This document shows positions 1 through 60,918 of a stretch of 64,000 bases of DNA, in pieces. Source of the DNA: Clostridia bacterium (GTDB lineage: Bacteria; Bacillota; Clostridia; TANB77; CAG-508). The notes beneath the pieces are model-generated. The model was not told the origin of the DNA. It saw nothing but the letters and a program-made list of their open reading frames with translations, and did not search any database. The translations under genes and the position numbers were made by a program. Location: positions 111,058 to 175,057 of the forward strand of contig JAFUGK010000007.1 of assembly GCA_017469445.1 (NCBI GenBank), read 5' to 3'. How positions within the stretch are numbered: the stretch's first letter is position 1; every line of letters begins with the position of its first letter.

Positions 1-446
1 AAGAAAAAAGATTGCATATATATAATAGTTTAAAATATGCTTCATATAATATTGCTTTTAGAAGAAAAAAGATAAAGAATAAAAACATAAAATTTAATAC
101 TAGATTTGGACCTAATGCTAATTATAAAAGTGGCGGAGATGATACTATATTCATAGTTGATTGTTTAAAAAACAAATTAAAAATATATTCAAGCCCTAAA
201 AATATAGGAAAAATATGTGGAAATGAATCAACTTGGTTCAAAGGATATGACGAAAAATATTTTTTTGATAGAGGAGCTTTGTTTACTGAAATAAGTATAA
301 GATACAGAAAGTTATTAATATTACAACATTTATTAAGGCATAAAGAGTTTTTGCAAGATGTTAAATTTTTTACTGCACTAAAAAATATGTTAAAAGGTTC
401 AAATGATTATATTAATAAATATAAAAAAGGAAAAAAGGTTTTATGA
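1..446 (+). CDS. glycosyltransferase, C-terminal portion (5' end lies outside window)
   Basis: Frame-3 ORF is open to the window edge. Its stop overlaps the next GT start (ATGA). It sits in the glycan locus and its sequence resembles GT family C-terminal regions. Confidence 0.45.
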   Translation, partial: EKRLHIYNSLKYASYNIAFRRKKIKNKNIKFNTRFGPNANYKSGGDDTIFIVDCLKNKLKIYSSPKNIGKICGNESTWFKGYDEKYFFDRGALFTEISIRYRKLLILQHLLRHKEFLQDVKFFTALKNMLKGSNDYINKYKKGKKVL

Positions 447-1552
447 AGAAAGTTTTACAAGTAACAATTGGAGATACATTTAGAGGCACTGAAAAAATAG
501 AATTGGATTGGTTTAGAATTATAAACAAAGAAGTAAAATTTGATTTTTTAGTAGTAGATGATAAGGTCTTTAATTTGTATAAAGATGAAATTAATAAATT
601 AGGTGGAAATATTTATAATATAAATGTAAAATATACTAGTTTGAAAAATAAAATTATATATTTTTATCGATTATATAAATTTTTAAGAAATAATCAATAT
701 GATGCAATACATATAAATTCTTCAGCTTTCTTTTATTCTTTTATTGTAGCTATAATATCTAAATTAAAAAAAATACCTAAAATAATTATTCATAGCCACA
801 GTTTACCACTTATAAATAAAACCAAAAAAAGTATAATTAAACTTTTGAATCCAGTATATAGAGTATTTTTTGATGAATATTTAGCATGCTCCAAAAAAGC
901 TGCAAATGCGTTATTTACTAATAATTTCATAAAGAAAGATGGAGTTAAAATATTAAAAAATGGGATTGATATAGAAAAATTTAAATTTAATGAAAACTTA
1001 AGAAAAGAATACAGAAAGAAGTTTAATATATCTAATGAAATTGTATTGGGTAATGTTGGGGTATTAGAAAATCAAAAAAATCACATGTATTTGATAGATA
1101 TTTTCTATGAAATACAAAAAATAAATACAAATACAATTCTTTTACTAATAGGAGAAGGAAAAGATAAAGAAAAAATTCAAGAAAAAGTAAAAAAACTGAA
1201 AATTGAAGAAAAAGTAAAATTTTTAGGATTTAGGGATGATGTAAGTAATATATTAAACTGTATGGATATTTTTATATTTCCAAGTTTGTCTGAAGAACTT
1301 GGAATAGCAGCAATAGAAGCGCAAACAAATGGATTAATAACGTATTGCTCAACAAAAGTACCAGAAGAAGCAAAGATTTCTAATAATTTTAGATTTTTTA
1401 ACTTGGATGAAAAGCCATATGAAATTGCAAGAAAAATTTATAATGAGAATATAAATATAGAAAATAGGTATATTGCATTTGAATATACATTGAAATGTGG
1501 ATATGACATAAAAGATGTTAGTTATGAATTATTAAAAATATATTTAAATTGA
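443..1552 (+). CDS. glycosyltransferase family 1 (GT4-type)
   Basis: 369 aa; C-terminal EELGIAAIEAQTNGLITYCS... E-x7-E/GT1 signature; typical length. Confidence 0.8.
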   Translation: MKKVLQVTIGDTFRGTEKIELDWFRIINKEVKFDFLVVDDKVFNLYKDEINKLGGNIYNINVKYTSLKNKIIYFYRLYKFLRNNQYDAIHINSSAFFYSFIVAIISKLKKIPKIIIHSHSLPLINKTKKSIIKLLNPVYRVFFDEYLACSKKAANALFTNNFIKKDGVKILKNGIDIEKFKFNENLRKEYRKKFNISNEIVLGNVGVLENQKNHMYLIDIFYEIQKINTNTILLLIGEGKDKEKIQEKVKKLKIEEKVKFLGFRDDVSNILNCMDIFIFPSLSEELGIAAIEAQTNGLITYCSTKVPEEAKISNNFRFFNLDEKPYEIARKIYNENINIENRYIAFEYTLKCGYDIKDVSYELLKIYLN

Positions 1553-1572
1553 ATACATATAGGAGAATTATA

Positions 1573-2670
1573 ATGTTTGATTATTTAATAGTTGGTTCGG
1601 GATTATTTGGCTCAACTTTTGCATTTGAAATGTCTAAGAAATAAAAAATGCTTAGTTATAGATAAAAGAAACCATATAGGAGGAAATACTTATTGCCAAA
1701 GAATTAATGGTATAAATATACATAAATATGGACCACATATATTTCATACAAATAACAAAAGAATTTGGGATTATATTAATCAATTTACAGAGTTTAATAA
1801 TTTTATATGCTCACCAATTGCAAATTATAAAGGTGAGATATACAATTTACCATTTAATATGAATACTTTTGCAAAGATGTGGAATATAGAAAGACCTAGT
1901 CAAGCAAAAGAAAAAATTGAAAAGCAAAAAAGAGAATACAATATTTCAAATCCTAAAAATTTAGAAGAACAGGCAATATCTCTTGTGGGAAAAGAAATAT
2001 ACGAGAAATTAATTAAAGAATATACAGAAAAACAGTGGAGAAAAGAATGTAAAGATTTACCAGCTTCTATTATAAATAGATTACCTGTTAGATATATATA
2101 TATGATAATAATTATTATAATGATCGATACCAAGGAATACCAATTGACGGGTATAATGTGATTATAGAAGAAATGTTGAAAAATGTAGAAACTAAAACAG
2201 GAATAGATTATTTAGAACACAGGGAAGAACTAAAGAGTATTGCTAAAAGAATAGTTTATACAGGTATGATAGATGAATATTTTGAATATAAACTAGGAGA
2301 ACTAGAATGGCGTTCATTAAAGTTTGAAGATGTAATTTTAGAAAATGTGGATAATTTTCAAGGAAATGCAATAGTAAATTATACAAGCAAAGAAGAAAAA
2401 TATACAAGAATAATAGAACATAAGCACTTTGAGTTTAATAAATGCACGGGAACAGTAATAACAAAAGAATATCCAATTAAGTGGAAAAGAGGTATAGAGG
2501 CGTATTATCCGATAAATGATAATAAGAATAATCTTTTGCTTTCAAGGTATAAAGAATTAGCCCAAAAAGAAAAAAATGTTATTTTTGGAGGAAGATTAGG
2601 AGAGTATAGCTATTATGATATGGATAAAGTTATAGAAAAAGCATTAGAATGTGTTGAGAATGAAATATAA
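1573..2670 (+). pseudogene. glf: UDP-galactopyranose mutase (glf), interrupted by two frameshifts (frames 1->2->1)
   Basis: N-terminus MFDYLIVGSGLFGS (FAD Rossmann) in frame 1 stops at 1642. The middle KRNHIGGNTY...HIFHT...EEQAISLVG segment is in frame 2. The C-terminal DNNYYNDRYQGIPIDGY...YYPINDNKN segment returns to frame 1. Shift sites are an A6 run (1643-1648) and an (AT)6 run (2092-2103). Confidence 0.7.
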
Positions 2671-2690
2671 AGGAGTTATTTAGCAAAAAT

Positions 2691-4206
2691 ATGAGAGGAA
2701 AAAATGCAATATTAAATATAATTTCATCATTTGGATTACAAATTATCACAATAACATGTGGATTTATAATTCCTAAAATGATAATTGTGAACTATGGCTC
2801 TAATGTTAATGGATTAATAACATCAATTACTCAGTTCTTAAAATATATAGTATTACTAGAAGTTGGATTTGGACCAGTAGTAAAATCTATACTATATAAG
2901 CCAATAGCAAACCAAGATAAATATAAAATACAAGAAATATTAAAGGCATCAGAAAAGTTTTTTAGAATAATTGCATATATATTTATGGCTTATATAGTTG
3001 TTTTATGCATAATATTGCCAATGATAGTATTAAATGAATTTGATACTTTATTTACAATATCATTAATAATTATCATTGCAATAAGCACTTTTGCAGAGTA
3101 TTTTTTAGGAATGACATATAAATTATATATACAGGCAGAACAGAAAACATATATAATATCAAATATTCAGCTTATAACCTTAATACTAAATACAATATGT
3201 ACAATAGCTTTAATTTATTCTGGAATGAATATTCAAATAGTAAAACTAGCTACAGCCTTCATATTTGTATTAAGGCCAATCTTACAAATGATATATGTAA
3301 AGAAAAAGTATAACATAGATTTAAAAAATGTTAAAGACGATTATAATATAAAGCAAAAATGGTATGGATTAGCACAGCACATAGCATATATTGTTTATAA
3401 TAATACAGATGTAGTAATACTAACAGTATTTACAAATATAGTGGAAGTCTCAGTATATTCAATTTATATGTTAGTAGTAAGTAGCATAAAAAATATAGTT
3501 ATGTCTTTCTCATCTGGAATAGATGCAATATTTGGTAATATGATAGCAAAACGGAGAACAAGAGAATTTAAATAAAAATTTTAAGACATACGAAGAATTT
3601 TACTTTTCAGTAGCTACAATTTTATTTGCATCTACACTTGTGCTGATAATACCATTTATAAGTATATATACAAAAGATATAACAGATGCAAACTATATAA
3701 GACCAATATTTGCATATTTACTGGTTTTAGCAGAATTTATGTGGATGATAAGAAAACCATATCATGATATGGTAAAAACAGTGGGGCATTTTAAACAAAC
3801 TCAAATAGGGGCATGGGTAGAAGCTATAGTTAATATTGTGTTATCAATTATACTTGTATTAAAATTTGGAATAGTAGGAGTAGCAATAGGGACATTAATT
3901 GCTACACTAATAAGAACAATAGAGCTTATGTATTATACTTCAAAAAACATATTAAAAAGAAGTGTAGGGTATACATTTAAACGACTTTTAGTAATAGCAA
4001 TAGAAATCGTATTAATAGTTTTGATAATAAATGTAATGCCATCAATAGAAATAACAAATTACTTAACTTGGGCTATTTATTCTTTGGGAGTTTTTGCAAT
4101 CTCTAGTTTAATAGTATTTGTAATTGATTGGTTGGTATATAAAGAAAACATAAAAACATTGATTGAAAGAATAAAAAACATGAAAAGGACTGAAAAATAT
4201 GAATAA
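2691..4206 (+). pseudogene. Wzx-like polysaccharide flippase (PST family), single frameshift near 3547-3556
   Basis: The two ORFs (294 aa + 188 aa) together give ~12-14 TM helices. Frame 1 reads ...NGEQENLNKNFKTYEEF... continuously into the second ORF. The frame switch falls at an A4 run (gcaaaacgg). The typical Wzx ...AKNxxE... motif is reconstituted if one A is added. Confidence 0.65.
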
Positions 4207-5158
4207 ATATTTAGTTACAGGAGGAGCTGGATTTATAGGCTCTTCATTGTGTAAAGAATTGTTAAAACAGGGAAAACAAGTGGTGGTTATAGATAATTTT
4301 TGTGATTTCTATGTCCCTCGAATTAAAGAAAACAATATAAAAGAATTTGAAGGAAATCCAAATTTTAAAATATATAAAAAAGATATAAGAGATAGAAAAT
4401 CTATTAGGCAAGTGTTTGAGAAAAATGACATAGAGATAGTTATACATTTGGCAGCAATGGCAGGGGTAAGACCATCAATAGAGAATCCAATTCTGTATCA
4501 AGAGGTAAATTGTATAGGGACACAAAATATATTAGAAGAAATGAAAGAGCAGGGCATTAAAAATTTAGTTTTAGCATCGTCTAGTAGTGTATATGGTAAT
4601 TGCAAGCAAACACCATTTAAAGAAGATATGAATGTGGATTTTGCAATAAGTCCGTATGCAGCAACTAAAAAAGCAAATGAAGTAATGGCACATGTTTACC
4701 ATAAACTATATGGTATGAATGTAATGGTGTTAAGGTTTTTTACAGTATATGGACCAAAGCAAAGACCAGATTTAGCAATAAATAAGTTTACAAGATTAAT
4801 GCTAGAAAATAAAGAAATTCCAATGTATGGAGATGGAAGCACAGCTAGAGATTATACATATATAGATGATATTGTAGATGGAATAATTAAGTCATGTGAG
4901 TATATACAAAAAAATGATAATGTTTATGAAATAATAAATTTGGGGAATTCAAGACCAATACCATTAAAACAAATGATAAATACAATAGAAAATGCACTAG
5001 GAGTATACGCAAAAATAAAGCAATTACCAATGCAGCCCGGTGATGTAAATATAACTTATGCAGATATTTCTAAAGCAAAAGAATTAATTGGATATGAACC
5101 AAAAACACCATTTGAAGAAGGAATAAAAAAATTTGTAAATTGGTATAAAAAGTATTGA
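4199..5158 (+). CDS. NAD-dependent epimerase/dehydratase (UDP-sugar 4-epimerase-like)
   Basis: N-terminal TGGAGFIGS Rossmann motif; catalytic YAATK motif; 319 aa. Confidence 0.85.
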   Translation: MNKYLVTGGAGFIGSSLCKELLKQGKQVVVIDNFCDFYVPRIKENNIKEFEGNPNFKIYKKDIRDRKSIRQVFEKNDIEIVIHLAAMAGVRPSIENPILYQEVNCIGTQNILEEMKEQGIKNLVLASSSSVYGNCKQTPFKEDMNVDFAISPYAATKKANEVMAHVYHKLYGMNVMVLRFFTVYGPKQRPDLAINKFTRLMLENKEIPMYGDGSTARDYTYIDDIVDGIIKSCEYIQKNDNVYEIINLGNSRPIPLKQMINTIENALGVYAKIKQLPMQPGDVNITYADISKAKELIGYEPKTPFEEGIKKFVNWYKKY

Positions 5159-5250
5159 CAAATTTGATTAAGTTATGATATGAATATAAAAACAAGGAGA
5201 TAATTTTTAGATAAGTCTCATCACATAAAAACGAAAGGATGAAGAAATTT

Positions 5251-6636
5251 ATGAAAATGACAAAAGATCAAAAAGCTATAACATTAATAGCATTAGTAAT
5301 TACAATAATAGTATTATTAATACTAGCAGGAGTAGCATTAGCCACATTAACAGGAAATACAAGCATAATAGACAATGCAAATTATGCAGTAACAGAATAT
5401 AATAAATCTGCAAATGGAGACCAAAATGTATTAAACCAAGTAGAAGAATTATTTGCAAGATATATGGGAAATGGAAATAATGAGCAAACAGCAGCTATTC
5501 AAGCACAATATGGAGATTTAGTAGACCCATCTAAAGACAAAATAAATCAAGAATTATTTACTTATGAAACATATGAACCTGGGGAAACAATAGGTTTAGT
5601 AAGGCATGTGTCAGGAGAAAATAAAACAGGAGGAATGGTATCTAGAGGAGATACACCTAGTGCCCAGGAAAAAGGGTCAGCCAAAATAACAGGAATAAAT
5701 TGGGAATATTTTTCAGATGAATATTTTGACGAAGGTGACTCAGTGGTGTCAGGATCTTCAGGATTGTATGAACGTGATTTAACGGTAACAAGTGCGGAAA
5801 AAAAGCAACAAGTAGAACAGGCTTTAAAAAAATTGATAATACCGGCCGAGATAGAGAAAAATGGCAAAAAATATGTTGTGAAAGAAGTAGAATTAACTGA
5901 GACATTAAAATTTAGCTCATACGACGGTGAAGAAGGAGATTATATGCCATTTTTAGCAACTACAGATTTTTATGCCGAGGCTGGAGCAACATCAAGTAAT
6001 GCTACTTATTTAATAATTCCGGCTTGTGTTGAAAAGATAGATAATTGCATATATCTTCCAAGGGATTATGTGCTTTTTGCTCCAAATAGTAAGGTAAAAG
6101 AAGTTTCATTTCACGGAAATGAATTCATACAAGGCGTTTCTTTACCAGAGAATTTAACAGGAGAAAATGTAATATATTTTAGTGGATGTAAAAATCTGAA
6201 ATCAATAAAAATTCCTAATGGTATTACAAGATTGGGATATCAAACTTTTGCTTCATGTAGTAGTTTAGAAACTGTAGAAATGGGAGCAGGTATAGTAGAA
6301 ATTGATACTTTTGTATTTGCAGCATGTGATTCGTTAAAAAATATAGTTTTAAATGATAATCTAAAGAATGTAAATGAAAACGCTTTTACAGGGTGTAATG
6401 GGTTAAAAACCATGACAATTCCAGGAGGTATTAGATCATTAGGAGCGGAACTTTTTGAATATTGTGATGAGTTGGAAATGGAATCAATAACATATAACAA
6501 TGTAGTATATACAAAAATAGCAGATTTAATAGCAGCCCTAAAGGCAAATAATGTTACATTTGTTGAAACAGAGCAAACTACTTTGCCTTATGATAAGCCA
6601 ACCTTTCAAGGTGTGCTTCTTTCAGGTGATAGATAA
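5251..6636 (+). CDS. surface protein, paralog A: pilin-like N-terminal leader/TM module + BspA-type leucine-rich repeats
   Basis: N-terminus MKMTKDQKA|ITLIALVITIIVLLILAGVALATL, then a conserved amphipathic stalk (IIDNANYAVTEYNKSAN.DQNVLNQVE.LF) shared with 5 other loci. C-terminal LRR_5 (BspA-like) repeats. RBS aaagga 11 nt upstream of ATG 5251. Confidence 0.6.
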   Translation: MKMTKDQKAITLIALVITIIVLLILAGVALATLTGNTSIIDNANYAVTEYNKSANGDQNVLNQVEELFARYMGNGNNEQTAAIQAQYGDLVDPSKDKINQELFTYETYEPGETIGLVRHVSGENKTGGMVSRGDTPSAQEKGSAKITGINWEYFSDEYFDEGDSVVSGSSGLYERDLTVTSAEKKQQVEQALKKLIIPAEIEKNGKKYVVKEVELTETLKFSSYDGEEGDYMPFLATTDFYAEAGATSSNATYLIIPACVEKIDNCIYLPRDYVLFAPNSKVKEVSFHGNEFIQGVSLPENLTGENVIYFSGCKNLKSIKIPNGITRLGYQTFASCSSLETVEMGAGIVEIDTFVFAACDSLKNIVLNDNLKNVNENAFTGCNGLKTMTIPGGIRSLGAELFEYCDELEMESITYNNVVYTKIADLIAALKANNVTFVETEQTTLPYDKPTFQGVLLSGDR

Positions 6637-6653
6637 TAATGAATAATTATAGC

Positions 6654-6679
6654 AAAAAAGTGGCATTGCCACTTTTTTG
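6654..6679 (+). terminator. rho-independent terminator (A-tract/hairpin/T-tract)
   Basis: aaaaagtggcattgccacttttttg: 10-bp stem, 3-nt loop, T6. Confidence 0.55.
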
Positions 6680-6708
6680 TTGTAATCGCATAAAAATATG
6701 TGTATAAT
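6680..6708 (+). promoter_or_regulatory. sigma-A-type promoter (TTGTAA-N17-TGTGTATAAT)
   Basis: -35 ttgtaa 6680-6685, extended -10 tgtgtataat ending 6708; same -10 block repeated upstream of 11015 gene. Confidence 0.5.
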
Positions 6709-6732
6709 AGAAAAAAACATATGAGGTAATAT

Positions 6733-8937
6733 ATGAAAAAAATTGGAATTGCATTATTAGAATTAGTAATATTAATATTTAATTTCATAATAGGTGCAAA
6801 TGAAAAAGGATTAAGAGTTTTACCAATTAGTATATTAATGAGTTTAATAATTATATACTTAATAATAAAAAAGATTAAAGAACCTGATAAAAATATATTT
6901 TTTAAATCCAAAACTGATTATTTAGTATTACTTTTCATGCTTACAACAACTTTACCGTTTATATTTGGCACATACTGCTCATACACTAACACTGTAGAAT
7001 TCATTATAAAATATTTCTTTATTTATTCGGTTTATGTTTTGGCAAGAAATGTAATAACAGACAAAAAAGATTTAAATCAAATAATTACTGCAACACTAAT
7101 TTGCTCATTAATACCTATAATTTTGGGGATTGATAACATAAAAGGGAAATACCTATATTGGTTATGTGAAAAACTGGATTTGTTATATAGTGGCTCTGGG
7201 TCTTTTTCGGCAACTTTTGGATATGCAAATGCAGTGGCAATTTATATGTCTCTATGCTTGTTTTTATCTTTGTATAAAATCAAAAATAGCGAAAATAAAA
7301 ATGAAAAGATAATAACATTAATATATATTATATTTATATCTTATGTGATTTGGATGACAAACTCTAAAGCTGTAGTTGCCATACTTGTAGCAACTTTACT
7401 AATGTTTTTTATAATGGACAACAAGAAAAAAATTTGTGAAAATTGGAAGAAGGTTCTACTAGTATTATTAGCTGTAATAGCTCTTGGAGCACCTATAATA
7501 ATATATGCTATGGGAGTATCAACATCTGTATATATAGATGGAGATGAATATGAAGAAAAAATAAAGTATAGTTTTTTGCCAAACAAAGAGTATAAATTAG
7601 AATTAGATTTAGAATCGAGTGTAAAAGCTAAGCAAGTTAAAGATATGGCTTTTGAACTTCAAATAATACAGGAAAACCAATATTTTAAAGATAAAAAAAT
7701 TGCAAAAAAAAGATTTGGAATTGAGAATGGTATAATAGATATAGTATTTACACCTGAAGAGGATTGTAGTCGAATAAGATTAAAAATAACAAATGATTTT
7801 TATGGAAAAATAAATATTAGAAAATGTTATATAAATGGAGAAGAGTATATTCTTAAATATAAGTATTTACCTAAAGAAATAGGAAGAATATTTGTAGAAT
7901 ATAGGCTTGATCAAAAAAGCATTAAAGAAAGAATGTATATATATAGTGATTGCATAGAGATTGCTAAAAATAATTACATTATAGGTCAAGGTGGAAATAC
8001 TTGGAGAGTATTATCGCCAGTGTTTCATGATTATATGACTCTACTTAAAGAAACTCATAGTTATTTTTTTGAATTACTCATAAGCTATGGAATAGTGGGA
8101 GTGATAGCATTTTTGACATTTATAGTATCTCTATTTGTAAAAACCTTAAAAAAATTAAAGAATAACAAAGAAAAAGCATTAATATTTTTAGGAGTATTTT
8201 TGGTATTAATACATAGCTTTGTGTTTGATTTTAGTATGTCATTTATGCTTATACAGATAATAGTATACATTTATATAGCGGGATTACTAGATGACGAGCA
8301 GAATAATGAAAAAATTCCAAAGGCCCTTGACTATATATTAATACTATTTTTGATATTCATTTTGAGCGTATATATAAGAACAGATATAGCGGAGTATATA
8401 GTAAAAGATGCTAATGATAAACAAAGTATTGCTTCATATTCAAGAGAATATTGCTATAAAAAAATAGAGGCAGAAATAGAGAATAAAGAAGATAAAACCA
8501 AAATTTTAAATAATATTCAAGAACTAATGAATAAAGAGCCATATTATAATCAAACAGAATTACAAAAAAAGTATTTTAATCTAGTATGCGATAATATAGG
8601 AGAAATGTCAGATGAGGATTTAGAAAACTATTTGACATTTGTAACAGAAAAGCTAAAAACAGTAAAATTTAGGACTCCATTATTCATAGAAACAATATTA
8701 ACCAGAACAAAGGCAATTAAAGGTGCAATAAATAAATTACAGGAATACGCAAATGGATTATCTGAAGATTCTAAAACAAAAGAAATTATAGTAAATGCAG
8801 TAAAAGAATTAGAATGGGTATTAGATGGTGAATATGAAAGAAATGTTAGCAATATAGAATCAATAGATAAGACAGGCTATACAGAAAAGGATGCAAACTC
8901 AATAAAGAAAGAATATTTAGAAATCTTAAATAAGTAG
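6733..8937 (+). CDS. Wzy_C-domain membrane protein (O-antigen ligase/polymerase or O-oligosaccharyltransferase-like) with ~200-aa C-terminal soluble domain
   Basis: ~12 TM helices. Large extracytoplasmic loop ending in the ...ETHSYFFELLISYGIVG... motif (H-x2-Y...E..G..G of Wzy_C/WaaL/PglL). Lies directly downstream of pilin-like paralog A. Confidence 0.6.
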   Translation: MKKIGIALLELVILIFNFIIGANEKGLRVLPISILMSLIIIYLIIKKIKEPDKNIFFKSKTDYLVLLFMLTTTLPFIFGTYCSYTNTVEFIIKYFFIYSVYVLARNVITDKKDLNQIITATLICSLIPIILGIDNIKGKYLYWLCEKLDLLYSGSGSFSATFGYANAVAIYMSLCLFLSLYKIKNSENKNEKIITLIYIIFISYVIWMTNSKAVVAILVATLLMFFIMDNKKKICENWKKVLLVLLAVIALGAPIIIYAMGVSTSVYIDGDEYEEKIKYSFLPNKEYKLELDLESSVKAKQVKDMAFELQIIQENQYFKDKKIAKKRFGIENGIIDIVFTPEEDCSRIRLKITNDFYGKINIRKCYINGEEYILKYKYLPKEIGRIFVEYRLDQKSIKERMYIYSDCIEIAKNNYIIGQGGNTWRVLSPVFHDYMTLLKETHSYFFELLISYGIVGVIAFLTFIVSLFVKTLKKLKNNKEKALIFLGVFLVLIHSFVFDFSMSFMLIQIIVYIYIAGLLDDEQNNEKIPKALDYILILFLIFILSVYIRTDIAEYIVKDANDKQSIASYSREYCYKKIEAEIENKEDKTKILNNIQELMNKEPYYNQTELQKKYFNLVCDNIGEMSDEDLENYLTFVTEKLKTVKFRTPLFIETILTRTKAIKGAINKLQEYANGLSEDSKTKEIIVNAVKELEWVLDGEYERNVSNIESIDKTGYTEKDANSIKKEYLEILNK

Positions 8938-8962
8938 AATAGCTAAAAGGAAGAAATATAAA

Positions 8963-9919
8963 ATGGATGAACTAATAACAGTAATTATAAATGTGTATAA
9001 TAGAGAAGATTTAATACAGAAGTGCTTGGAAAGTGTAATTAATCAAACATACAAAAATCTTGAAATATTAATAATAAATGATGGATCAACGGACAATACA
9101 CTTAAAATTTGCGAGAGCTATAAGGATAGCAGAATAAGAATTATAACTACAGAAAATATGGGGCTTTCCATGTCAAGAAATGTGGGAATTGAGAATAGCA
9201 AAGGAGAGTATTTGTATTTTGTTGATAGTGATGACTTCATAGAAGACGATACTATAGAGTATTTATATGGTTTATGCAAAAAAAACGATGTAAAATTATC
9301 AACATGCATGAGTAATACAATAAATAATTACAATTTTACAAAAAAGGAAAGCAAAGAAAAAGTAAAAATAATTGATAGCTATGAAATGCTAAAAAAAGTT
9401 GTAATTGCAAAAGATACTGCAGGAACTACATGGAATAAATTATATAAAAAAGAATTGTTTGATAATATAAGATTTGAAAAAAGAATTGTAAATGATATTG
9501 TTGTTACATATAAGGTAGTTATTGAGGCTAAAAAAATTGCATATAGTAATTTGAAAAAGTATTATTATTTAAAGCACAAGGACGCAATAACCATAAAAAA
9601 TAGGAACCACTCTGATAGAGCAATGGATTTATATAATGCAGCATATGAAAGGTATAATTATTTAAAAAAAATATATCCTAATTTTTTAGAAAATGATATT
9701 GGGATGATTAGAAATATCATAAAAGTGTATCTTACAAGCAATAGTGAAGTGGAAAAATTTTTAAAAGAACAAGAAGCGTTTAAGCTGTTTAAAGAATTAT
9801 TTTCACCTAGAATTTTAACTAGTAGAATAGGATTTAAATTAAAATCAGTTATTGTATTATTTGATATAAATCCTAAATTGTGTAAAAAAATATGGGGAAT
9901 TTATGATAAAAGGAAATAA
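8963..9919 (+). CDS. glycosyltransferase family 2
   Basis: N-terminal ITVIINVYNRE...INQTY...IINDGSTDNT...DSDD motif set (GT2 DXD). Confidence 0.85.
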   Translation: MDELITVIINVYNREDLIQKCLESVINQTYKNLEILIINDGSTDNTLKICESYKDSRIRIITTENMGLSMSRNVGIENSKGEYLYFVDSDDFIEDDTIEYLYGLCKKNDVKLSTCMSNTINNYNFTKKESKEKVKIIDSYEMLKKVVIAKDTAGTTWNKLYKKELFDNIRFEKRIVNDIVVTYKVVIEAKKIAYSNLKKYYYLKHKDAITIKNRNHSDRAMDLYNAAYERYNYLKKIYPNFLENDIGMIRNIIKVYLTSNSEVEKFLKEQEAFKLFKELFSPRILTSRIGFKLKSVIVLFDINPKLCKKIWGIYDKRK

Positions 9920-9993
9920 AAGTTTGTGATTGACAATAACATATGTTTATGGTATAAAAAGTTAAGAAATTAAAGGTGAAAAGGAGAAAAATT

Positions 9994-10863
9994 ATGAAAA
10001 TAACAAAAGAACAAAAAGGTATAACCTTAATAGCATTAGTAATAACAATAATAGTGCTATTAATATTAGCTGGAGTGGCATTAGCTACATTAATAGGAAA
10101 CACAAGCATCATAGATAACGCAAATTATGCAGTAACAGAATATAATAAATCGGCAGGTAACGACCAAAATGTATTAAATCAAGTAGAGAACTTATTTGCA
10201 AAATATATGGGAAATGGAAATAATGAACAAACAGCAGCTATTCAAGAACAATATGGAGATTTGGTGGATCCTTCTAAAGATGCAATAAATCAAGATGTAT
10301 TTACATATGAATTAACTGAGCCTAGCACGTCTAGAGTGAGAACTAATGCTAATCAAGATGGAGAAAAAGGAATAGTGTCAAGAGGAGACACACCTAGTGC
10401 AGAACAAAAAAAAGGTACAGCTAAAATTACAGGAATAAATTGGGATTATTTTGCTGGCGATGGGTTTGAAATAACCACTACAGATGCTATTGAAGCGGGT
10501 GGATCTGAATTAAAACGATATATATTTGATATAACAAATTTAGAAAAGAAACAACAAATAGAAAATATATTTAAAAAACTAATAATACCATACGAAATAA
10601 ACAAAAATGGTAAAGCATATACTGTTACAGAAGTTGAGGTAAGAGAAGAAATAAACTATGAGAATGTGAATTGGAGAATGAGCGATGTAGAAGTAGAAGA
10701 AAATTTTGTGCCTTTTCTTTCAGTAACAGGTTCATATGTAGATGCTGGAGCTACAGCTGAAAATGCAACATGTGTTATTGTACCAGTATGCGTTGAAAGT
10801 TTTGTGTTTGAGTTTCCTAATGATCATACATTATATGCAGAGGGAAGCCCACTTAACAATTAG
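9994..10863 (+). CDS. surface protein paralog B (pilin-like N-module + GINW middle module; lacks LRR C-terminus, truncated variant)
   Basis: MKITKEQKG|ITLIALVITIIVLLILAGVALATL plus stalk and middle region similar to paralog A up to ...VPVCVES. It stops where the LRR region begins in A. RBS aaaggag 7 nt upstream of ATG 9994. Confidence 0.55.
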   Translation: MKITKEQKGITLIALVITIIVLLILAGVALATLIGNTSIIDNANYAVTEYNKSAGNDQNVLNQVENLFAKYMGNGNNEQTAAIQEQYGDLVDPSKDAINQDVFTYELTEPSTSRVRTNANQDGEKGIVSRGDTPSAEQKKGTAKITGINWDYFAGDGFEITTTDAIEAGGSELKRYIFDITNLEKKQQIENIFKKLIIPYEINKNGKAYTVTEVEVREEINYENVNWRMSDVEVEENFVPFLSVTGSYVDAGATAENATCVIVPVCVESFVFEFPNDHTLYAEGSPLNN

Positions 10864-10904
10864 AAGATTAGTTTGTTTATAAATTAAAACTTAATTAATG
10901 AATA

Positions 10905-10951
10905 AAAAAGCAGGTAGTTAATAATAAAATATACTTAACTACTTGCTTTTT
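10905..10951 (+). terminator. rho-independent terminator
   Basis: aagcaggtagttaa...ttaactacttgctt stem (14 bp, 1 mismatch) followed by T5. Confidence 0.5.
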
Positions 10952-10952
10952 G

Positions 10953-10981
10953 TTGCAACAAATTACAAATATGTGTATAAT
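10953..10981 (+). promoter_or_regulatory. sigma-A-type promoter (TTGCAA-N17-TGTGTATAAT)
   Basis: -35 ttgcaa 10953-10958; -10 tataat 10976-10981 with TGTG extension. Confidence 0.5.
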
Positions 10982-11014
10982 AAGATAGAATAAAAAAATA
11001 GAAAAAGTGATGAT

Positions 11015-11755
11015 ATGAAAAAAGTAAGTGTAGTTATACCAATGCATAACAGCTCTAAGCATATTGAAGAATGCATAGATAGTGTTATAAATCAAACATA
11101 CAAAAATATAGAAATAATTGTTGTTGATGATAAAAGTAGCGACAATAGTATTTCTATTGTAAAAAACAAGAATGATGACAGAATAAAACTTATTGAGCTA
11201 AAAGAAAATGTGGGAGCAGCAAAAGCAAGAAATAAAGGAATAGAAAATGCTCCAGGAGATTATATATGTTTTTTAGATTCGGATGATTATTGGAAAGAAG
11301 ATAAATTAGAAAAACAAGTAAAATTCATGGAGGGTAATGATTATACATTTGTATATGGAGGATATGCATACTTAAAGAAAGGAAGAATGCGTACAGCACA
11401 TGTTCCAAAATCTATGAATTATAAGCAATTATTAAAGAATCATGCAATATTTACATCAACAGTAATGTTAAATATGGAGCATTTGAAAAAAGAGCAAATA
11501 TATATGCCGGATATTAAAAGAGGACAAGATATGGCAACATGGTGGCATATCTTAAAAAATGGAATTACAGCATATGGTATAGCAGAAGTTATATCCATAT
11601 ATAGAGTTGGAGAAAAATCTTTATCTTCAAATAAATTCAAAGCTGTAAGAAGAACTTGGAATCTTTTCAAAACAGAAGATATAAATATTTTTAAAAGGAT
11701 ATATCTATTTTTTTGCTATATATTTAATGCAATAAAAAGAAGAATGAGCTTATAA
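11015..11755 (+). CDS. glycosyltransferase family 2
   Basis: VSVVIPMHNS...INQTYKNIEIIVVDDKSSDNS...FLDSDDYW; 246 aa. Confidence 0.85.
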   Translation: MKKVSVVIPMHNSSKHIEECIDSVINQTYKNIEIIVVDDKSSDNSISIVKNKNDDRIKLIELKENVGAAKARNKGIENAPGDYICFLDSDDYWKEDKLEKQVKFMEGNDYTFVYGGYAYLKKGRMRTAHVPKSMNYKQLLKNHAIFTSTVMLNMEHLKKEQIYMPDIKRGQDMATWWHILKNGITAYGIAEVISIYRVGEKSLSSNKFKAVRRTWNLFKTEDINIFKRIYLFFCYIFNAIKRRMSL

Positions 11756-11767
11756 TTAGGAGGGAAA

Positions 11768-12328
11768 ATGAAAATATTATTACATACATGCTGTGCACCA
11801 TGTAGTGTGTACTGCATAGATAGATTAAAACAAATGAATATAGATATGGATGTATATTGGTTTAATCCAAACATACATCCATATATAGAATACAAAGCAA
11901 GAAGAGATACATTAAAAGAATATACAAAAATGATAGGTGTAAATGCAATATTTGAAGAAGATTATGGATTAAGAGAATTTTGCAAAAATGTAATAGGTGA
12001 CTTAGAAAATAGATGCATGAATTATTGCTATAGAGTAAGATTAGAAAAGACTGCAAAATTTGCCAAAGAAAACGGATATGATGCTTTTTCTACTACCTTA
12101 TTAATAAGTCCATATCAGAATCATGAAGGATTAAAACAAGTAGGAGAGGAGATGTCTAAAAAATATGATATACCATTCTTCTATGAAGACTTTAGACCAG
12201 GATTTAGAGAAGGACAAGCAAAAGCAAGAAAATTAGGATTGTATATGCAAAAATATTGTGGCTGTGTGTTTTCAGAGGAAGAGAGATATCAAAAACAAAT
12301 AGAAAATGATAAATTAAAGGAGGAATAA
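11768..12328 (+). CDS. queH: epoxyqueuosine reductase QueH (DUF208)
   Basis: LLHTCCAPCS Cys cluster at N-terminus plus C-terminal CGC; ~185 aa typical of QueH. Confidence 0.8.
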   Translation: MKILLHTCCAPCSVYCIDRLKQMNIDMDVYWFNPNIHPYIEYKARRDTLKEYTKMIGVNAIFEEDYGLREFCKNVIGDLENRCMNYCYRVRLEKTAKFAKENGYDAFSTTLLISPYQNHEGLKQVGEEMSKKYDIPFFYEDFRPGFREGQAKARKLGLYMQKYCGCVFSEEERYQKQIENDKLKEE

Positions 12329-13002: not shown

Positions 13003-13119
13003 CTAGCAACATCCTCTATTATTTCCACAGCAGCAGAATAATAATATAAAAATTAATATAATCCAAATGCAGTTATCATCACCAAAGCCTAAACCACCAC
13101 AACCTCTATTTTCTGGCAT
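13003..13119 (-). CDS. tiny TM protein, YjcZ-like sporulation family (38 aa)
   Basis: MPENRGCGGLGFGDDNCIWIILIFILLFCCCGNNRGCC: Gly-rich N-terminus, hydrophobic core, Cys-rich tail. RBS ggaggg 9 nt upstream. Below the 60-aa ORF cutoff. Confidence 0.5.
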   Translation of the reverse strand: MPENRGCGGLGFGDDNCIWIILIFILLFCCCGNNRGCC

Positions 13120-13453: not shown

Positions 13454-13487
13454 TTGGACAAATGAAACTATAGGAGGAAAAATATTA

Positions 13488-14576
13488 TGAAAAATACAAA
13501 AGAGATGAGACGGAATAACATTAATAGCACTTGTAATAACAATAATAGTGTTATTAATACTAGCAGGAGTAGCACTAGCTACACTTAATGGAAACACAAG
13601 TATAATAGACAATGCGAATTATGCAGTGGAGGAATACAATAAATCTGCAAATTCAGATCAAAATGTATTAAATCAAGTAAAAGACCTATTTGAAAAATAT
13701 ATGGGAGAAAGCAAGCCACCATTAGAACCAGTACCAGTAGTAGCAACAAATGGAGCAACAATAACGTATAATGCAAATGGTGGAACAGGAAACATTGAAG
13801 ATGGTTTTGTAGCACCATTAGGAAATGGCTTTAAAGGATGGAATACACAGCCTGATGGAAGTGGAACAAGTTATGCGCCAGGAGCAGAAGTAAGCCAAGA
13901 TTTAACACTTTATGCAATATGGGGAGGAACATACAGATTAGGACAAGAAGTATCAATACAAGTAGCAAAAGGAACAGAAACAGTTACAGAGAGCTTTTAT
14001 GTAATAGAAGATAAAGGAACAAGTGATGCAAACGTAACATTACTTGCAAAATATAACTTGGATAAAAATGTAGATGAAACAACAGGAAAATATTATCAAA
14101 AGCCAAATGCTACATTTGCTGATACAGCATGCGCGTTTTCAAGTACAAACTATTGGGCAACAAAATGGGAAGCAGTAGATATAGGGGAAAATGGAGAAAA
14201 TATAACAGCAAGAAGATTTGACTTAAATAATGAAGCAGAATATGGGGAAGTAGCAGAAGGAGATGCGATTGATAGAGCAAAAAATTATGCAAAAAATACA
14301 TTAGATTTAACAAGAAGCGCAGGAAGATTATTAACATATGAGGAAGCAATAAGACTTGAAAATTATTATAATTATATATTATTTGGAGATTTGATTGAAG
14401 GATATTTACATTATTGGCTTTCTTCTACATTTGAAGAAAATTATATTGAAGGTGGTATTTGGTGGATTCATGGCGATGAAGAAGTGGAAAGAGGTTATGT
14501 GTATAGCGGGGATGAATACGCCGATTTTGGTGTTCGCCCAGTAGTAACTGTTCCAAAAACAGCAATAAATCACTAG
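13488..14576 (+). pseudogene. surface protein paralog C (pilin-like N-module + Flg_new repeat + C-terminal beta domain), N-terminal frameshift
   Basis: Frame 0 reads MKNTKEMRRNNINS... and stops after 32 codons. A one-base shift at 'cggaataaca' restores ...ITLIALVITIIVLLILAGVALATLNGNTSIIDNANYAV... The listed ORF 13548-14576 begins inside the TM helix. It contains a Listeria-Bacteroides (Flg_new) repeat, ITYNANGGTG...GWNT..DGSGTSY...TLYAIW. Confidence 0.55.
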
Positions 14577-56267: not shown

Positions 56268-56323
56268 TATTTTATAAAATATTTATGGGTAGAATATTGC
56301 TCATATGTGAAAGGATGAATTTT

Positions 56324-58258
56324 ATGAAAAAAACTAAAGAGATTCGAGGTATTACATTAATAGCATTAGTAATAACAATAATAGTATTACTAATACTAGC
56401 AGGAGTAGCACTTGCTACACTTACAGGGAATAGTAGTATAATAGATAATGCAAATTATGCAGTAGAGGAATACAATAAATCTGCCAATTCAGATCAAAAT
56501 GTATTAAATCAGGTAGAAGATTTATTTGCTAAATATATGGGAACAGAAACTAAATACACAATAACATATAATGCAAATGGTGGAACAGGAACAATGGAAG
56601 TAGAGCAATCTTCAAGGACAGGTATAAATAAGTTTGTACCACCAGAAGGAAAAGTGTTTAAACATTGGAATGTATCAGCAGATGGAAGTGGGACAAGTTA
56701 TAGAGAAGGAGCACAAGTTTCATCTGATGTGACATTATATGCTATATGGGCAACAAAAATAGAACAACAATATGGTAATCTAGTAAATGAACAAAATGAA
56801 ACAGTAACACCAGAATTATTTGAATGGGAGCCAATAACAGAACCAGGAGTGGCAGTAATAAGACATAATTCAAATGCAAATGGAGTAGATGGAATAGTAT
56901 CAAGAGGAGATACACCTACTGCAACAACACTAAAAGGAACAGCAAAAATAACGGGAATAAATTGGGAGTATTTTGCAAGTGGCGATGATTCAAGTATTTT
57001 TGAAGTAAAAGAAAATGATAAAAAAGGATCTACATGGTCTGAGGAATATGCGGGTATTGTTACTAATTATGAAGCTTTTGGATCTACAGGATATACAATA
57101 AGTGTAAAAACAAACCAAAAGATGAATGAAATTAAGAACAAAATGAAAAAATTGATAATACCATATGAAGTAACAAAAGAAGTTGATGGGGTCACAAAAA
57201 CATATACAGTTACAGATATAGATGCAAAATATATGTATAACGATGTTGAATTTAAAATCTTAGAAGATACAGACGTAGATATGGGAAGCTACAGTGAAGT
57301 GGAAAGTGGAAGTATATCATTTTATGAATTCTTTTATGGAACAATTGACGAAAATGAATCATCATACTTGATTATTCCAAGCTGTATAGAACATATAGGA
57401 AATATAAATATTTTCCCATGTGAATATATAGTGTTTGCAGAAGATAGTAATCTTACGGGATTTGGCGTTGAAAAAGCGCCAAAAGAGCCTTTAACAAATA
57501 TATATACTAAATCTATCATATTACCAAATGATATTCAAAAAGTAGGGAAAAAGGCATTTTCAAACTTTACTGCACTAGAGAGTATTATAATACCAGATAG
57601 TGTAACAGAAATAGGAGAATCAGCATTTGAAGGATGTTCAAGTCTTAAAAATGTAACAACGCCAAGAAATTTAAAAATTATAGGACCTTCTGCATTCAAA
57701 GATTGTGATAAATTAGAAAACATAACAATACCAAGTGGGGTTACTTATATTGGGGGTTCAGCATTCTCGGGTTGTAGAGAACTAACAAATGTAGTATTAC
57801 CGAATGGTATTAAAAGAATAGACTTTGCAGCGTTTAATGGTTGCGCAAAAATAACAAGCATGGAGATACCAGATAGTGTAATTGAATTAGGAACTAGGGC
57901 ATTTTCTGGTTGCAAATTAACAAGCTTAACGATACCAAATAGTGTGACAAAATTAGGGAGCTCTATAGTTGAAAACTGTACTACTTTAACAAGTATAGTA
58001 TTTCCAGAAAATATGACAGAAATGCCATATAAAATATGTTCTGGATGTACCGGATTAGAAAGTATTACTATTCCAGATGGAGTTACTAATTTTGGAATAG
58101 GATGTTTCTATAACTGTACAGGGCTTAAAACTATAAATTATAAAGGTGTTGAGTATAGAAAAATTTCAGATTTTAAAAATGCATTGACAGCAAATGGAAT
58201 TAAATTAAATACAACAGGTGAGCCTTCATTTGGAAATGTAAGCTTAATAGATGACTAA
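56324..58258 (+). CDS. surface protein paralog D: pilin-like N-module + Flg_new repeat + GINW middle module + BspA-type LRR C-terminus
   Basis: MKKTKEIRG|ITLIALVITIIVLLILAGVALATL; YTITYNANGGTG...HWNVSADGSGTSY...TLYAIW; ~10 LRR_5 repeats; RBS aaagga 8 nt upstream of ATG 56324. Confidence 0.65.
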   Translation: MKKTKEIRGITLIALVITIIVLLILAGVALATLTGNSSIIDNANYAVEEYNKSANSDQNVLNQVEDLFAKYMGTETKYTITYNANGGTGTMEVEQSSRTGINKFVPPEGKVFKHWNVSADGSGTSYREGAQVSSDVTLYAIWATKIEQQYGNLVNEQNETVTPELFEWEPITEPGVAVIRHNSNANGVDGIVSRGDTPTATTLKGTAKITGINWEYFASGDDSSIFEVKENDKKGSTWSEEYAGIVTNYEAFGSTGYTISVKTNQKMNEIKNKMKKLIIPYEVTKEVDGVTKTYTVTDIDAKYMYNDVEFKILEDTDVDMGSYSEVESGSISFYEFFYGTIDENESSYLIIPSCIEHIGNINIFPCEYIVFAEDSNLTGFGVEKAPKEPLTNIYTKSIILPNDIQKVGKKAFSNFTALESIIIPDSVTEIGESAFEGCSSLKNVTTPRNLKIIGPSAFKDCDKLENITIPSGVTYIGGSAFSGCRELTNVVLPNGIKRIDFAAFNGCAKITSMEIPDSVIELGTRAFSGCKLTSLTIPNSVTKLGSSIVENCTTLTSIVFPENMTEMPYKICSGCTGLESITIPDGVTNFGIGCFYNCTGLKTINYKGVEYRKISDFKNALTANGIKLNTTGEPSFGNVSLIDD

Positions 58259-58302
58259 ATAGAGAATGAAGATTCCAAATAAATATATTAGAATTTGTAT
58301 AT

Positions 58303-60009: not shown

Positions 60010-60841
60010 GGAAGAAGCAATAGAAAAAACAATAGATGAAGTAAAAGAAGTTATGAAAAGTAACAAGCTAAATGATGGATTGGAAATAATAGTAGTAAAT
60101 GATGGCTCAACAGATAAAACAAGTAAAAAAGCTGAAGCAAAAGGCGTAACAGTAATAAATAATCCTCAAAATATGGGATATGGTTATTCGCTAAAAAAAG
60201 GAATAAAAGCTGCTAAAAATGAAACCATTGTAATAACAGACGCAGATTTAACATATCCGTTTTCATCTGTACCAGAAATGTTAAAAATGAAGGAAAAAGG
60301 ATTTGACCTTGTGGTAGGAGCAAGAAGCGGAAAGTACTATAAACAATCAATTTTTAAAAACATGCTAAGAAAAATATTAAAAGGTTTTGTAGAGTTTATT
60401 TCTGGCAAAAAAGTAAAAGATGTAAACTCTGGCTTAAGAGTATTTGACAAATCTACAGTAATTAAGTTTTTTCCAAGATTATGCAACACATTTAGCTTTA
60501 CAACTTCGCAAATGCTTGCATACGCAATGAATGACTTGACAATATATTATGTGGATATTCCATATAATAAAAGAACAGGAAAAACAAAAGTAAAACTTTT
60601 AAAAGATTCAATAAAATCGATGAGATATATTCTTGAGGCTGGGATATACTATAATCCACTTAAAATATTCGTTTTGTTGACACTGATATGTATAGCGCTA
60701 TCTGTTATTGGATTTTTATGTTCTCATTTCCTAAAAATAAACGCAGGATATGTTTTAGGAATTGGTGGACTTTTAGTATCAATTATAGTATTTGCATTAG
60801 GAATACTATCAGCATTATTAAAACAAATAATGGATAAATAA
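59978..60841 (+). CDS. polyprenol-phosphate glycosyltransferase (GtrB/CsbB/Ppm1-like GT2 with two C-terminal TM helices)
   Basis: MISVIIPAYNEEEAI...VVNDGSTD...ITDADL then C-terminal TM pair; start ATG 59978 with RBS aaagagga. Confidence 0.75.
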   Translation: MISVIIPAYNEEEAIEKTIDEVKEVMKSNKLNDGLEIIVVNDGSTDKTSKKAEAKGVTVINNPQNMGYGYSLKKGIKAAKNETIVITDADLTYPFSSVPEMLKMKEKGFDLVVGARSGKYYKQSIFKNMLRKILKGFVEFISGKKVKDVNSGLRVFDKSTVIKFFPRLCNTFSFTTSQMLAYAMNDLTIYYVDIPYNKRTGKTKVKLLKDSIKSMRYILEAGIYYNPLKIFVLLTLICIALSVIGFLCSHFLKINAGYVLGIGGLLVSIIVFALGILSALLKQIMDK

Positions 60842-60875: not shown

Positions 60876-60918
60876 TATTTTAGAAAATATATGTAGGTAA
60901 ACAGAAAGGATGAATTCT

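Follow-up and report, generated by a model that had tools for sequence, protein, structure and literature searches.

To our knowledge, en-bloc protein O-glycosylation by Wzy_C enzymes has been established for Gram-negative bacteria and, within the Firmicutes, for S-layer proteins only. Here we analysed a 64,000-nucleotide stretch of a Clostridia bacterium genome (assembly GCA_017469445.1, contig JAFUGK010000007.1, positions 111,058 to 175,057 of the forward strand; this whole stretch is referred to as the window), at the left-hand end of which a gene for a 734-aa Wzy_C protein lies amongst glycan-assembly genes and genes for a family of N-terminally anchored surface proteins. An earlier note on this DNA, made from the sequence alone, had read the region as an slg-like O-glycosylation cluster around pilin-like surface proteins, with the Wzy_C protein as candidate oligosaccharyltransferase (OTase). 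We compared the locus with the closest described systems and with related loci, which carry L numbers below.

An enzyme gene of the Wzy_C type next to the gene for its membrane-anchored substrate is the hallmark of the TfpO, TfpM and PglS systems, in which the pair can sit apart from the glycan genes (PMC12645811, PMC3643930), and Schulz et al. found a pilin gene adjacent to 21/31 PglL homologues (PMC3643930, PMC12645811). The protein studied here resembles TfpO/PilO of Pseudomonas, as well as TfpM and PglS of Moraxellaceae/Acinetobacter, in being an apparent Wzy_C/WaaL-fold enzyme whose gene adjoins that of a membrane-anchored protein with a class-III-type N-terminus. Those systems, however, are Gram-negative, whilst the enzyme described here has 734 aa, with an insert resembling a carbohydrate-binding module (CBM) and a helical-repeat ectodomain, and carries neither a PglL_A nor a Wzy_C_2 signature. 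The TfpO, TfpM and PglS enzymes are smaller than this. The partner proteins also differ from those of TfpO/PilO/TfpM: they are leucine-rich repeat (LRR), formylglycine-generating-enzyme (FGE)-like or Flg_new proteins without a pilin fold, without Glu5 and with varied C-termini, whereas the substrates of TfpO/PilO/TfpM are type IV pilins glycosylated at their C-terminal Ser/Thr.

In Firmicutes, the slg locus of Paenibacillus alvei encodes an asparagine-synthase homologue (WsfA), a Wzy_C protein with C-terminal tetratricopeptide repeats (TPR; WsfB), a protein with TagF and glycosyltransferase (GT) domains (WsfC), a lipid-P-glucose branch system (WsfD and WsfH) and a priming phosphoglycosyltransferase (PGT; WsfP), the C-terminal TPR motif being common to WsfB and PglL (PMC2943079). 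Going by published description, the likeness to the slg systems of P. alvei and Geobacillus stearothermophilus (WsfB/WsaB) lies in the Firmicutes host, in a Wzy_C protein of about the same size (~750 aa in the slg O-OTases) whose C-terminal helical repeat may correspond to their protein-interaction repeat and, across the related loci, in an AsnB-like protein, a TagF+GT fusion, a WsfD-like transferase, a WsfH-like family-2 glycosyltransferase (GT2) and a PGT of the Gal-1-P-transferase type. The label 'slg-like' was apt, with the loci of the family holding counterparts of P. alvei WsfA, WsfB, WsfC, WsfD, WsfH and WsfP. In contrast to the slg systems, whose target is an S-layer protein, LRR, FGE-like or Flg_new proteins with an N-terminal anchor are proposed as targets here; in the left-hand locus we found no S-layer or SLH-type protein, and the neighbours are N-terminally anchored LRR proteins. 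Export would here depend on a Wzx-like protein, whereas G. stearothermophilus uses an ABC transporter.

Two further systems bear on the comparison. WaaL of Cupriavidus metallidurans (PDB 7TPG/7TPJ) shares 11% sequence identity with the enzyme, which has an extra transmembrane (TM) helix and two extra ectodomains, and a spore-forming Clostridium has no lipopolysaccharide core acceptor. The teichuronic-acid operon of Bacillus subtilis (TuaA-H) is similar in its Ugd, GT4, TuaG-like GT2, flippase-like protein and Wzy_C protein; unlike that operon, the locus gives no match to TuaE or TuaB, has no TuaF/Wzz-like gene and has surface-protein genes embedded in it. TuaE, the Wzy_C-type protein of the teichuronic-acid operon, is thought to be a polymerase.

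Pairing of surface-protein and Wzy_C genes

As the earlier note had stated, the Wzy_C gene of the window lies directly downstream of the gene for a surface protein of this family (member A, or paralog A; Table 1). One genome per species was scanned, which gave 24 loci, all of them in metagenome-assembled genomes (MAGs) of gut or rumen Clostridia, and further loci were collected by exact-protein look-up; 28 loci were evaluable, the window included, with enzyme identities of 25-58%. Wzy_C directly follows a family gene on its own strand in 15 of these 28 (the window, L006, L007, L014, L015, L017, L018, L019, L021, L023, L025, L029, L031, L033 and L035#2), at enzyme identities down to 25%. Imperfect cases amongst the 15 are L019, whose gene lacks the N-terminal module, L023, where the gene is frameshifted, and L035#2, where only the C-terminal part is on the contig. 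Additionally, nothing but a Bac_transf phosphoglycosyltransferase gene separates the two in L016 and L026, the family gene is immediately downstream of Wzy_C in L020, and it lies <3 kb downstream in L013, L022 and L028; a family gene is thus within 3 kb of Wzy_C in 21/28 loci. Within the 24 scanned loci, which are not fully independent and whose flanking housekeeping genes differ, 10 of 19 module genes fell in the 2.5 kb directly upstream of Wzy_C, representing 15% of the DNA (binomial P = 1.4e-4), and 0 of 19 lay >6 kb from it, a zone representing 33% (P = 5e-4; 121 kb of flank).

The pair was found amongst differing housekeeping genes. In L020, Wzy_C and the family gene stand between lepA-methyltransferase and nth; in L021 the family gene and Wzy_C precede a tRNA-synthetase-like gene; in L017 they precede ruvB-GT2-queH, with a single GT2 two genes downstream; and in L031 they are flanked by argS-LCP and a GT2 fragment. 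The pair therefore persists without glycan-assembly genes. Other loci show it within compact clusters, such as L030, where six genes between ybeY and era encode a PGT, a Wzx-like protein, a family protein, Wzy_C, GT2 and GT2-TagF. A closely related strain (L035) possesses two enzyme paralogues, 57% identical to each other and each behind a family gene (in order: FGE-type family gene, Wzy_C#2, GT1, AsnB-like, Wzx, paralog A, Wzy_C#1, GT2b, paralog B). L013 unites genes that occupy two separate sites in the window, in the order GT-C535 (a 535-aa GT-C-like protein), Wzy_C, GT2-TagF, family gene and GT2d. The Pfam annotations of L001, L003, L030-L033 and L035 list no chain-length regulator (Wzz/CpsCD), although one could be encoded elsewhere. 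Comparison of the locus across relatives, which had been suggested previously, thus revealed the link between surface protein and Wzy_C as a deeply conserved gene pair rather than a chance feature of this one locus, and disposed of the alternative that the cluster has unrelated neighbours.

As a separate observation, L032, which has no adjacent family gene, carries PilB-, PilT- and PilC-type genes (T2SSE x2, T2SSF) at 1-2874, ~6 kb upstream of Wzy_C.

The Wzy_C protein and the N-terminal module of its partners

The 734-aa protein matches Pfam Wzy_C (PF04932) over residues 391-461 with 48.7 bits (cut-off 31.7), the match being split by a beta-sandwich insert; Pfam returned nothing besides Wzy_C, and no TPR match. 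In NCBIfam there was no match to TuaE, and all scores were sub-threshold: 27.3 bits for a ligase model, 26.5 against a cut-off of 40 for TIGR04370 (repeat-unit polymerase) and 15.7 against 100 for EpaQ. A profile of the family, searched against PDB sequences, gave a marginal match to 9rmk_A, 'Oligosaccharyltransferase' (E=0.26), and did not match WaaL; 9rmk_A is not among the fold-search matches listed. We identified ~120 homologues of ~740 aa, and those with a named source are all from uncultured Clostridia, except for the weakest (Paenibacillus thermoaerophilus); an O-antigen-ligase-family protein of P. thermoaerophilus aligns with the core of the enzyme at an hhalign probability of 99.4. 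Residues Y164, N166, R400, G418, G420, H442, G453 and D499 are invariant in an alignment of 68 sequences, and the conserved residues of the enzyme comprise K220 (R in most homologues), R400, H442-S-x9-G453-x-x-G456 and D499. We take the H-S-x9-G-x-x-G motif to be of the ligase/OTase type.

The AlphaFold model of the protein is confident (pLDDT 91.5, pTM 0.88) and, together with the alignment, indicates a polytopic fold of the WaaL type in which two Arg and one His, all conserved, lie at the outer face of the membrane; in the fold search a ligase, and not the SEDS-type polymerases, came out best. The structure prediction called for in the earlier note thus returned a WaaL/O-OTase fold with conserved catalytic residues, and the C-terminal soluble domain of ~200 aa remarked upon there proved real, as residues ~560-734 are modelled as helical with pLDDT >90. 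This domain matches helical-repeat proteins in the fold search and is placed outside the cell by the parity of the 13 TM helices and the positive-inside pattern of the loops. Sequence and predicted fold assign the enzyme firmly to the WaaL/O-OTase/Wzy_C superfamily; they cannot separate a protein O-OTase from a polymerase or ligase.

The surface proteins have in common an N-terminal module of ~73 aa, with 85-96% identity between paralogues within the genome. Six copies are present in the 64 kb, and none in the intervening 40 kb of housekeeping genes. Built from 244 members, the module comprises a short basic leader, Gly (92%) or Ala (8%) at position -1, then ITLIALVITIIVLLILAGV, a conserved Gly at +26 and an amphipathic stretch, its consensus being (K/R)-G/A-ITLIALVITIIVLLILAG. 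As in class III signals, the hydrophilic leader ends in Gly(-1) and is followed by ~21 hydrophobic residues. Position +5 is Ala in 97% of members, in place of the Glu5 of pilins, position +41 is Tyr, Thr or Ser in 78% of the 244, and scores for Pfam N_methyl (PF07963/IPR012902) are 13.8-17.2 bits, below the cut-off of 21.2. Paralog A has a class-III-signal-like module of this kind, KAITLIALVITIIVLLILAG, without Glu5; its model has a TM helix and, at low confidence, a second helix, then a disordered loop (115-138) and an LRR domain of the BspA type. The pilin fold was not found in this protein, for which Foldseek matched only LRR surface proteins, and its NCBI record reads 'leucine-rich repeat protein' of 'MAG: Clostridia bacterium'. 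The loop motif SRGDTPSA is common to paralogs A and B, and appears as SRGDTPTA in member D. The description of these proteins as pilin-like consequently holds for the N-terminal signal but not for the fold, the N_methyl score or residue 5; judged from sequence, the family carries a class-III-like signal and falls outside the pilins.

Comparable architectures are known from PilB, PilC and the Glu5-less PilA of Streptococcus sanguinis, in which a short hydrophilic leader with Gly/Ala as its last residue is followed by ~22 hydrophobic residues and then by a bulky C-terminal domain of the adhesin type, this domain being described as 'grafted' in the large pilin-like proteins; Gly-1 is a requirement of prepilin peptidase, and Glu5 is needed for filament assembly (PMC6497953). 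Unlike the S. sanguinis proteins, the family described here almost always has Ala for Glu5, stays below the N_methyl threshold, has no detected pilin-fold module and is enormous, with many copies per genome. The C-terminal domains of the partner proteins vary (LRR, FGE-like, Flg_new) behind the common module and Gly/Ser/Thr/Asn-rich linkers, and their C-termini vary as well, paralog A ending in ...LLSGDR. The module is very widespread: a phmmer search of 1.84 billion representatives (50% identity) yielded 14,609 matches at E<=1e-3. Nevertheless, it is unannotated in Pfam and NCBIfam, and NCBI names its members after their C-terminal domains only.

Many of the module matches are just 70-100 aa long (e.g. 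P0249, P0262 and P0287) and could be either contig-end fragments or genuine helix-only subunits; in the latter case they would bear on whether the family forms filaments. Furthermore, a GGF(Y/W)VGRYE motif replaces the LRRs in several enzyme-adjacent members (L007 258-1853, L014 4807-6105, L031 8376-9833, L033 6595-7890 and L035 3-521). This motif is presumably typical of FGE/SUMF1-like domains; the two members checked (L007 and L033) gave no FGE/SUMF1-type Pfam match.

Gene content and state of the locus

The window has a G+C content of 28%, and every called gene is on the + strand. As gpr (germination protease), priA and ribosomal protein genes are amongst the neighbours of the locus, the DNA is chromosomal and derives from a spore-forming Clostridium. 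The left-hand locus starts ~5 kb upstream of the window, right after ruvB, and ends at queH, with three DUF2142 calls, ugd and the start of GT2a in the part upstream of the window. A scan for promoters and terminators was uninformative in this AT-rich DNA (116 sites versus 115 expected). The features of the window are collected in Table 1.

Table 1. Features of the left-hand and right-hand sites, with window coordinates
Feature	Coordinates	Strand	Remarks and evidence
GT2a, C-terminal part	12..446	+	Full gene 262 aa, begins upstream of window; PF00535
GT1/GT4 glycosyltransferase, 369 aa	443..1552	+	Pfam Glycos_transf_1 1.6e-23
glf (UDP-galactopyranose mutase), disrupted	1573..2670	+	Pfam GLF on both pieces
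Wzx-like polytopic membrane protein, split by frameshift	2691..4206	+	Position in locus and topology
NAD-dependent nucleotide-sugar epimerase/dehydratase, GalE-like	4199..5158	+	Pfam Epimerase 1.9e-58
Family member A (paralog A)	5239/5251..6636	+	Signal-like module, disordered loop with SRGDTPSA, BspA-type LRR domain; LRR_5
Predicted Wzy_C/WaaL-fold enzyme, 734 aa, 13 TM helices	6733..8937	+	Pfam PF04932, AlphaFold model, fold search
CBM-like beta-sandwich of the enzyme, residues ~262-375	7516..7857	+	Inserted in extracytoplasmic catalytic loop; model, fold search
C-terminal helical-repeat domain of the enzyme, residues ~560-734	8410..8934	+	Model, pLDDT >90; conserved along family
GT2b glycosyltransferase, 318 aa	8963..9919	+	Pfam 3.5e-35
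Family member B (paralog B)	9976..10863	+	Module and beta domain, no LRR; ATG at 9994, 289 aa
GT2c glycosyltransferase, TuaG-like	11015..11755	+	NCBIfam TuaG 253 bits, under cut-off
Family member C, Flg_new repeat	13487..14576	+	Frameshifted in signal region near 13511
Family member D, Flg_new and LRR_5	56285..58258	+	Module, Pfam
GT-C-like membrane protein, 535 aa	58402..60009	+	YDD motif after TM1, weak NCBIfam WsfD match
GT2d, polyprenyl-phosphate-hexose-synthase-like (AglJ/PgfS/WsfH-like)	59978..60841	+	NCBIfam matches below curated cut-offs
Family member E, Flg_new	60910..62172	+	Module
Module-less Flg_new/DUF6273 protein	62247-63134		Within right-hand array
Family member F	63172..64000	+	Runs off window, full protein 411 aa; module

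All of the genes listed in the earlier note were found where it had placed them, on the + strand, with the qualification that glf and the Wzx-like gene are frameshifted; of its three GT2 genes, GT2b and GT2c are full genes, and the first is the C-terminal piece of a GT2 that starts upstream. Several of the glycan-assembly genes recur in relatives: GT2a homologues are found after the Wzy_C gene in many related loci, GT2b is kept downstream of Wzy_C, the same 369-aa GT1 gene comes after Wzy_C#2 in L035, and GT2c homologues are in some cases fused to a TagF-type glycerophosphotransferase (GT2-TagF: L013, L015 and L023). GT1 has a weak TuaC match, and the epimerase scores 210 bits against NCBIfam galE, under the cut-off. 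The Wzx-like label was assigned only from a polytopic membrane topology of ~500 aa and the position in the locus; the single family match is a weak one to MurJ (Pfam), and there was no significant match in Pfam, NCBIfam or PDB profiles. Intact homologues of 494-503 aa are present in L007, L014, L015, L023, L033 and L035.

Over its first 18.9 kb the window is identical to scaffold_17 of ENA assembly ERZ28654170, save for a 2-nt deletion at 1638. This deletion, of AA within glf, gives the gene a second frameshift and is found in the window only, the AA being present in the otherwise identical contigs L001 and L003-L005. In addition, glf is broken by a slip in (AT)6 at 2092-2103, the Wzx-like gene, intact at 500 aa in a related strain, is split by the loss of frame that a 1-nt shift causes in the run of A at 3548-3551, and one DUF2142 gene is called as pieces of 271 and 226 aa. 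Assembly error was weighed as the cause: the (AT)6 slip and the Wzx-like frameshift both recur in independent assemblies, namely public Logan assemblies from two sequencing runs, and the deletion at 1638 does not. Recoding of TGA was also considered for the split genes and rejected, since each break is a true frameshift, and the new frame then runs into TAA or TGA. The Wzy_C enzyme, GT1, GT2b, GT2c, the epimerase and members A and B are intact, and the same 289-aa form of member B occurs in a related strain.

At the right-hand end of the window, members D, E, F and G form an array between rplQ and ykuD/secA (window 56285-64000, continuing in L034 10001-12765); beyond the end of the window two more members are followed by ykuD and secA. 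A GT2d gene and the gene for the 535-aa GT-C-like protein lie within this array, and a homologue of the latter stands directly upstream of Wzy_C in L013. GT2d matches the PgfS, AglJ and dolichyl-P-hexose synthase models, all below their curated cut-offs. A GT2d and GT-C-like pair between adhesin genes recalls the Pgf protein-glycosylation system of Streptococcus mutans (PgfS/PgfM1/PgfE/PgfM2) and the three-component glycosylation systems of the Gtr type; unlike these, no GtrA-type flippase was seen. A ribbon-helix-helix (RHH) antitoxin and ParE toxin pair lies directly upstream of member D (window 55711-56201, converted from L034 2540-3030).

Elsewhere in the window, two small ORFs at 13003-13119 and 13179-13277, which would encode the Cys-rich hydrophobic peptides MPENRGCGGLGFGDDNCIWIILIFILLFCCCGNNRGCC and MGRDYYNDEILWFIILFLLLFCGCGNKGYRQD, are the sole minus-strand coding candidates of the region, and one of them is called as a 38-aa gene in L001. 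Neither Pfam nor NCBIfam gave a match for a 130-aa ORF (12542-12934) situated between queH and family member C. Finally, 33741-38363 encodes a 1540-aa protein with bacterial alpha-2-macroglobulin domains (A2M_BRD, A2M), adjoining a gene for a DsbD-type membrane protein.

Proposed function and its alternatives

Since the gene pair recurs in many distant relatives, the enzyme most likely puts sugar chains on surface proteins. From the gene content, modelled fold, conserved residues and conserved pairing observed here we infer transfer to protein, an acceptor site and a donor glycan; that the 734-aa protein is an en-bloc O-OTase dedicated to the module-bearing surface proteins is, on sequence and model, a reading for which we see the chances as even. 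The glycan would be built on undecaprenyl phosphate (Und-P), at the cytoplasmic face, by a PGT (cluster-encoded in relatives) together with GT2a, GT2b, GT2c and GT1, using sugar donors supplied by Ugd, the epimerase and Glf, and the Wzx-like protein would flip it across the membrane. The WaaL-fold enzyme, with K/R220, R400 and H442 as putative catalytic residues at the outer membrane face, would then move it from Und-PP to a hydroxyl residue of proteins with the (K/R)-G/A-ITLIALVITIIVLLILAG module, the first target being the protein encoded directly upstream of the enzyme gene. The CBM-like sandwich and the TPR-like helical repeat may hold the glycan and the protein partner, and the GT-C/GT2d pair at 58-61 kb may use Und-P-hexose to attach a hexose side branch on the outside of the cell. 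As the C-terminal domains of the partners vary, the recognition element would have to be the N-terminal module or the Gly/Ser/Thr/Asn-rich linker; the Tyr, Thr or Ser at +41 and the disordered SRGDTPSA loop are speculative candidates for the acceptor site.

The conserved pairing itself, the isolated pairs, the duplicated pair in L035, the embedded family gene in L030, the lack of a chain-length regulator in the annotated loci, the helical-repeat domain predicted to be extracellular, the accessory genes that parallel the P. alvei slg locus and the common module and linker of otherwise varied partners, with the frequent hydroxyl residue at +41, all count for an O-OTase. A different set of observations weighs against it, and much of this set speaks for the main, though rather unlikely, alternative, in which the enzyme is a repeat-unit polymerase of a teichuronic/teichoic-like wall glycopolymer, or a ligase to a lipid or glycan acceptor, with the family proteins being co-located, co-expressed envelope components or polymer-interacting partners rather than substrates. 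By analogy, the TuaG-like GT2c (253 bits), the GT4 with its weak TuaC match, the Ugd encoded upstream and the TagF-type domains of the GT2-TagF fusions in L013, L015 and L023 point to such a polymer, and an LCP gene lies two genes upstream in L031. The sub-threshold NCBIfam matches include TIGR04370 and the EpaQ family, the scores for ligase and polymerase models being equally weak; PglL_A (PF15864) and Wzy_C_2 (PF11846) gave no match even at E<=1, so that the HMM check suggested in the earlier note bore out Wzy_C but not PglL_A; and the CBM-like insert, which suggests glycan binding, is no less compatible with a glycan than with a protein as acceptor. Moreover, there is no family gene within 10 kb of the enzyme gene in L008, L009 and L012 (one clade) or in L024 and L032, and in L010 and L011 the family gene is only found 3-6 kb upstream; in the L008-L012 clade, a PGT and GT2s accompany the enzyme, without an adjacent family gene. 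Conversely, it would be odd for a polymerase to stand away from all glycan genes, paired only with a surface-protein gene (L020 and L021), or with just one GT2 two genes downstream (L017), and for two paralogues in one cluster each to follow a family gene. The lack of a Wzz/CpsCD partner in the annotated loci and of a TuaE match in NCBIfam, the best fold match being a ligase and not SEDS-type polymerases, and the conserved motif of the ligase/OTase type likewise argue against this alternative, although none of these points is decisive.

The state of this particular genome also weighs against the O-OTase reading, as the left-hand pathway may be impaired or partly disabled here, given the frameshifts in glf and the flippase gene, the split DUF2142 gene, the broken member C and the absence of a PGT from the left-hand locus of the source genome. 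It is a real possibility, though short of probable, that the locus is a decaying remnant whose glycan is no longer made or flipped, leaving Wzy_C idle or using glycans from elsewhere. The reproduction of the glf and Wzx-like lesions in assemblies of two runs, and the intact Wzx-like gene of a related strain, would fit this. Against decay stand the genes listed above as intact and a Wzy_C protein with 98% identity to its counterpart in another strain. The two lesions fall in short repeats, A4 and (AT)6, and could be reversible or assembly errors, and the pair-only loci show that the enzyme is able to work with glycans encoded elsewhere. That the adjacency is a mere by-product of a hypervariable surface-gene island, with no functional link, seems very improbable indeed: the family is very large and its members cluster together, but the same order and strand recur beside different housekeeping genes at 25-58% enzyme identity, and no family gene lies >6 kb from the enzyme in 121 kb of flank. 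Whatever the reaction catalysed, we consider a functional link between the enzyme and the surface-protein family to be highly probable. Going further, the module may represent a previously undescribed display system of uncultured gut Clostridia, in which adhesin domains are swapped on a pilin-type helix that a WaaL-fold enzyme loads with a teichoic/teichuronic-like polymer; the helix could be the tip subunit of a type IV filament or a stand-alone anchor. We regard this as improbable at present.

In our literature searches we found neither this enzyme family nor the module described, and no pilin-adjacent O-OTase from Gram-positive bacteria, reviews covering only the Gram-negative TfpO, TfpM, PglS and PglL and the S-layer systems. 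Should the polymerase/ligase alternative be right, the family would still be architecturally new among wall-polymer polymerases or ligases, and genetically linked to surface proteins. The display system, if real, would amount to a protein-anchored wall polymer, a kind of bacterial proteoglycan, and to the first pilin-linked O-OTase system in Gram-positive bacteria. If the enzyme is indeed an O-OTase for the module-bearing proteins, the pair, conserved in many uncultured gut and rumen Clostridia, would provide new O-OTases with unusual ectodomains for glycoengineering and a testable handle on the purpose of a pilin-type signal without Glu5, and the known reach of this chemistry would come to include a very large family of unannotated, adhesin-like surface proteins with a probable influence on interactions with host and diet.

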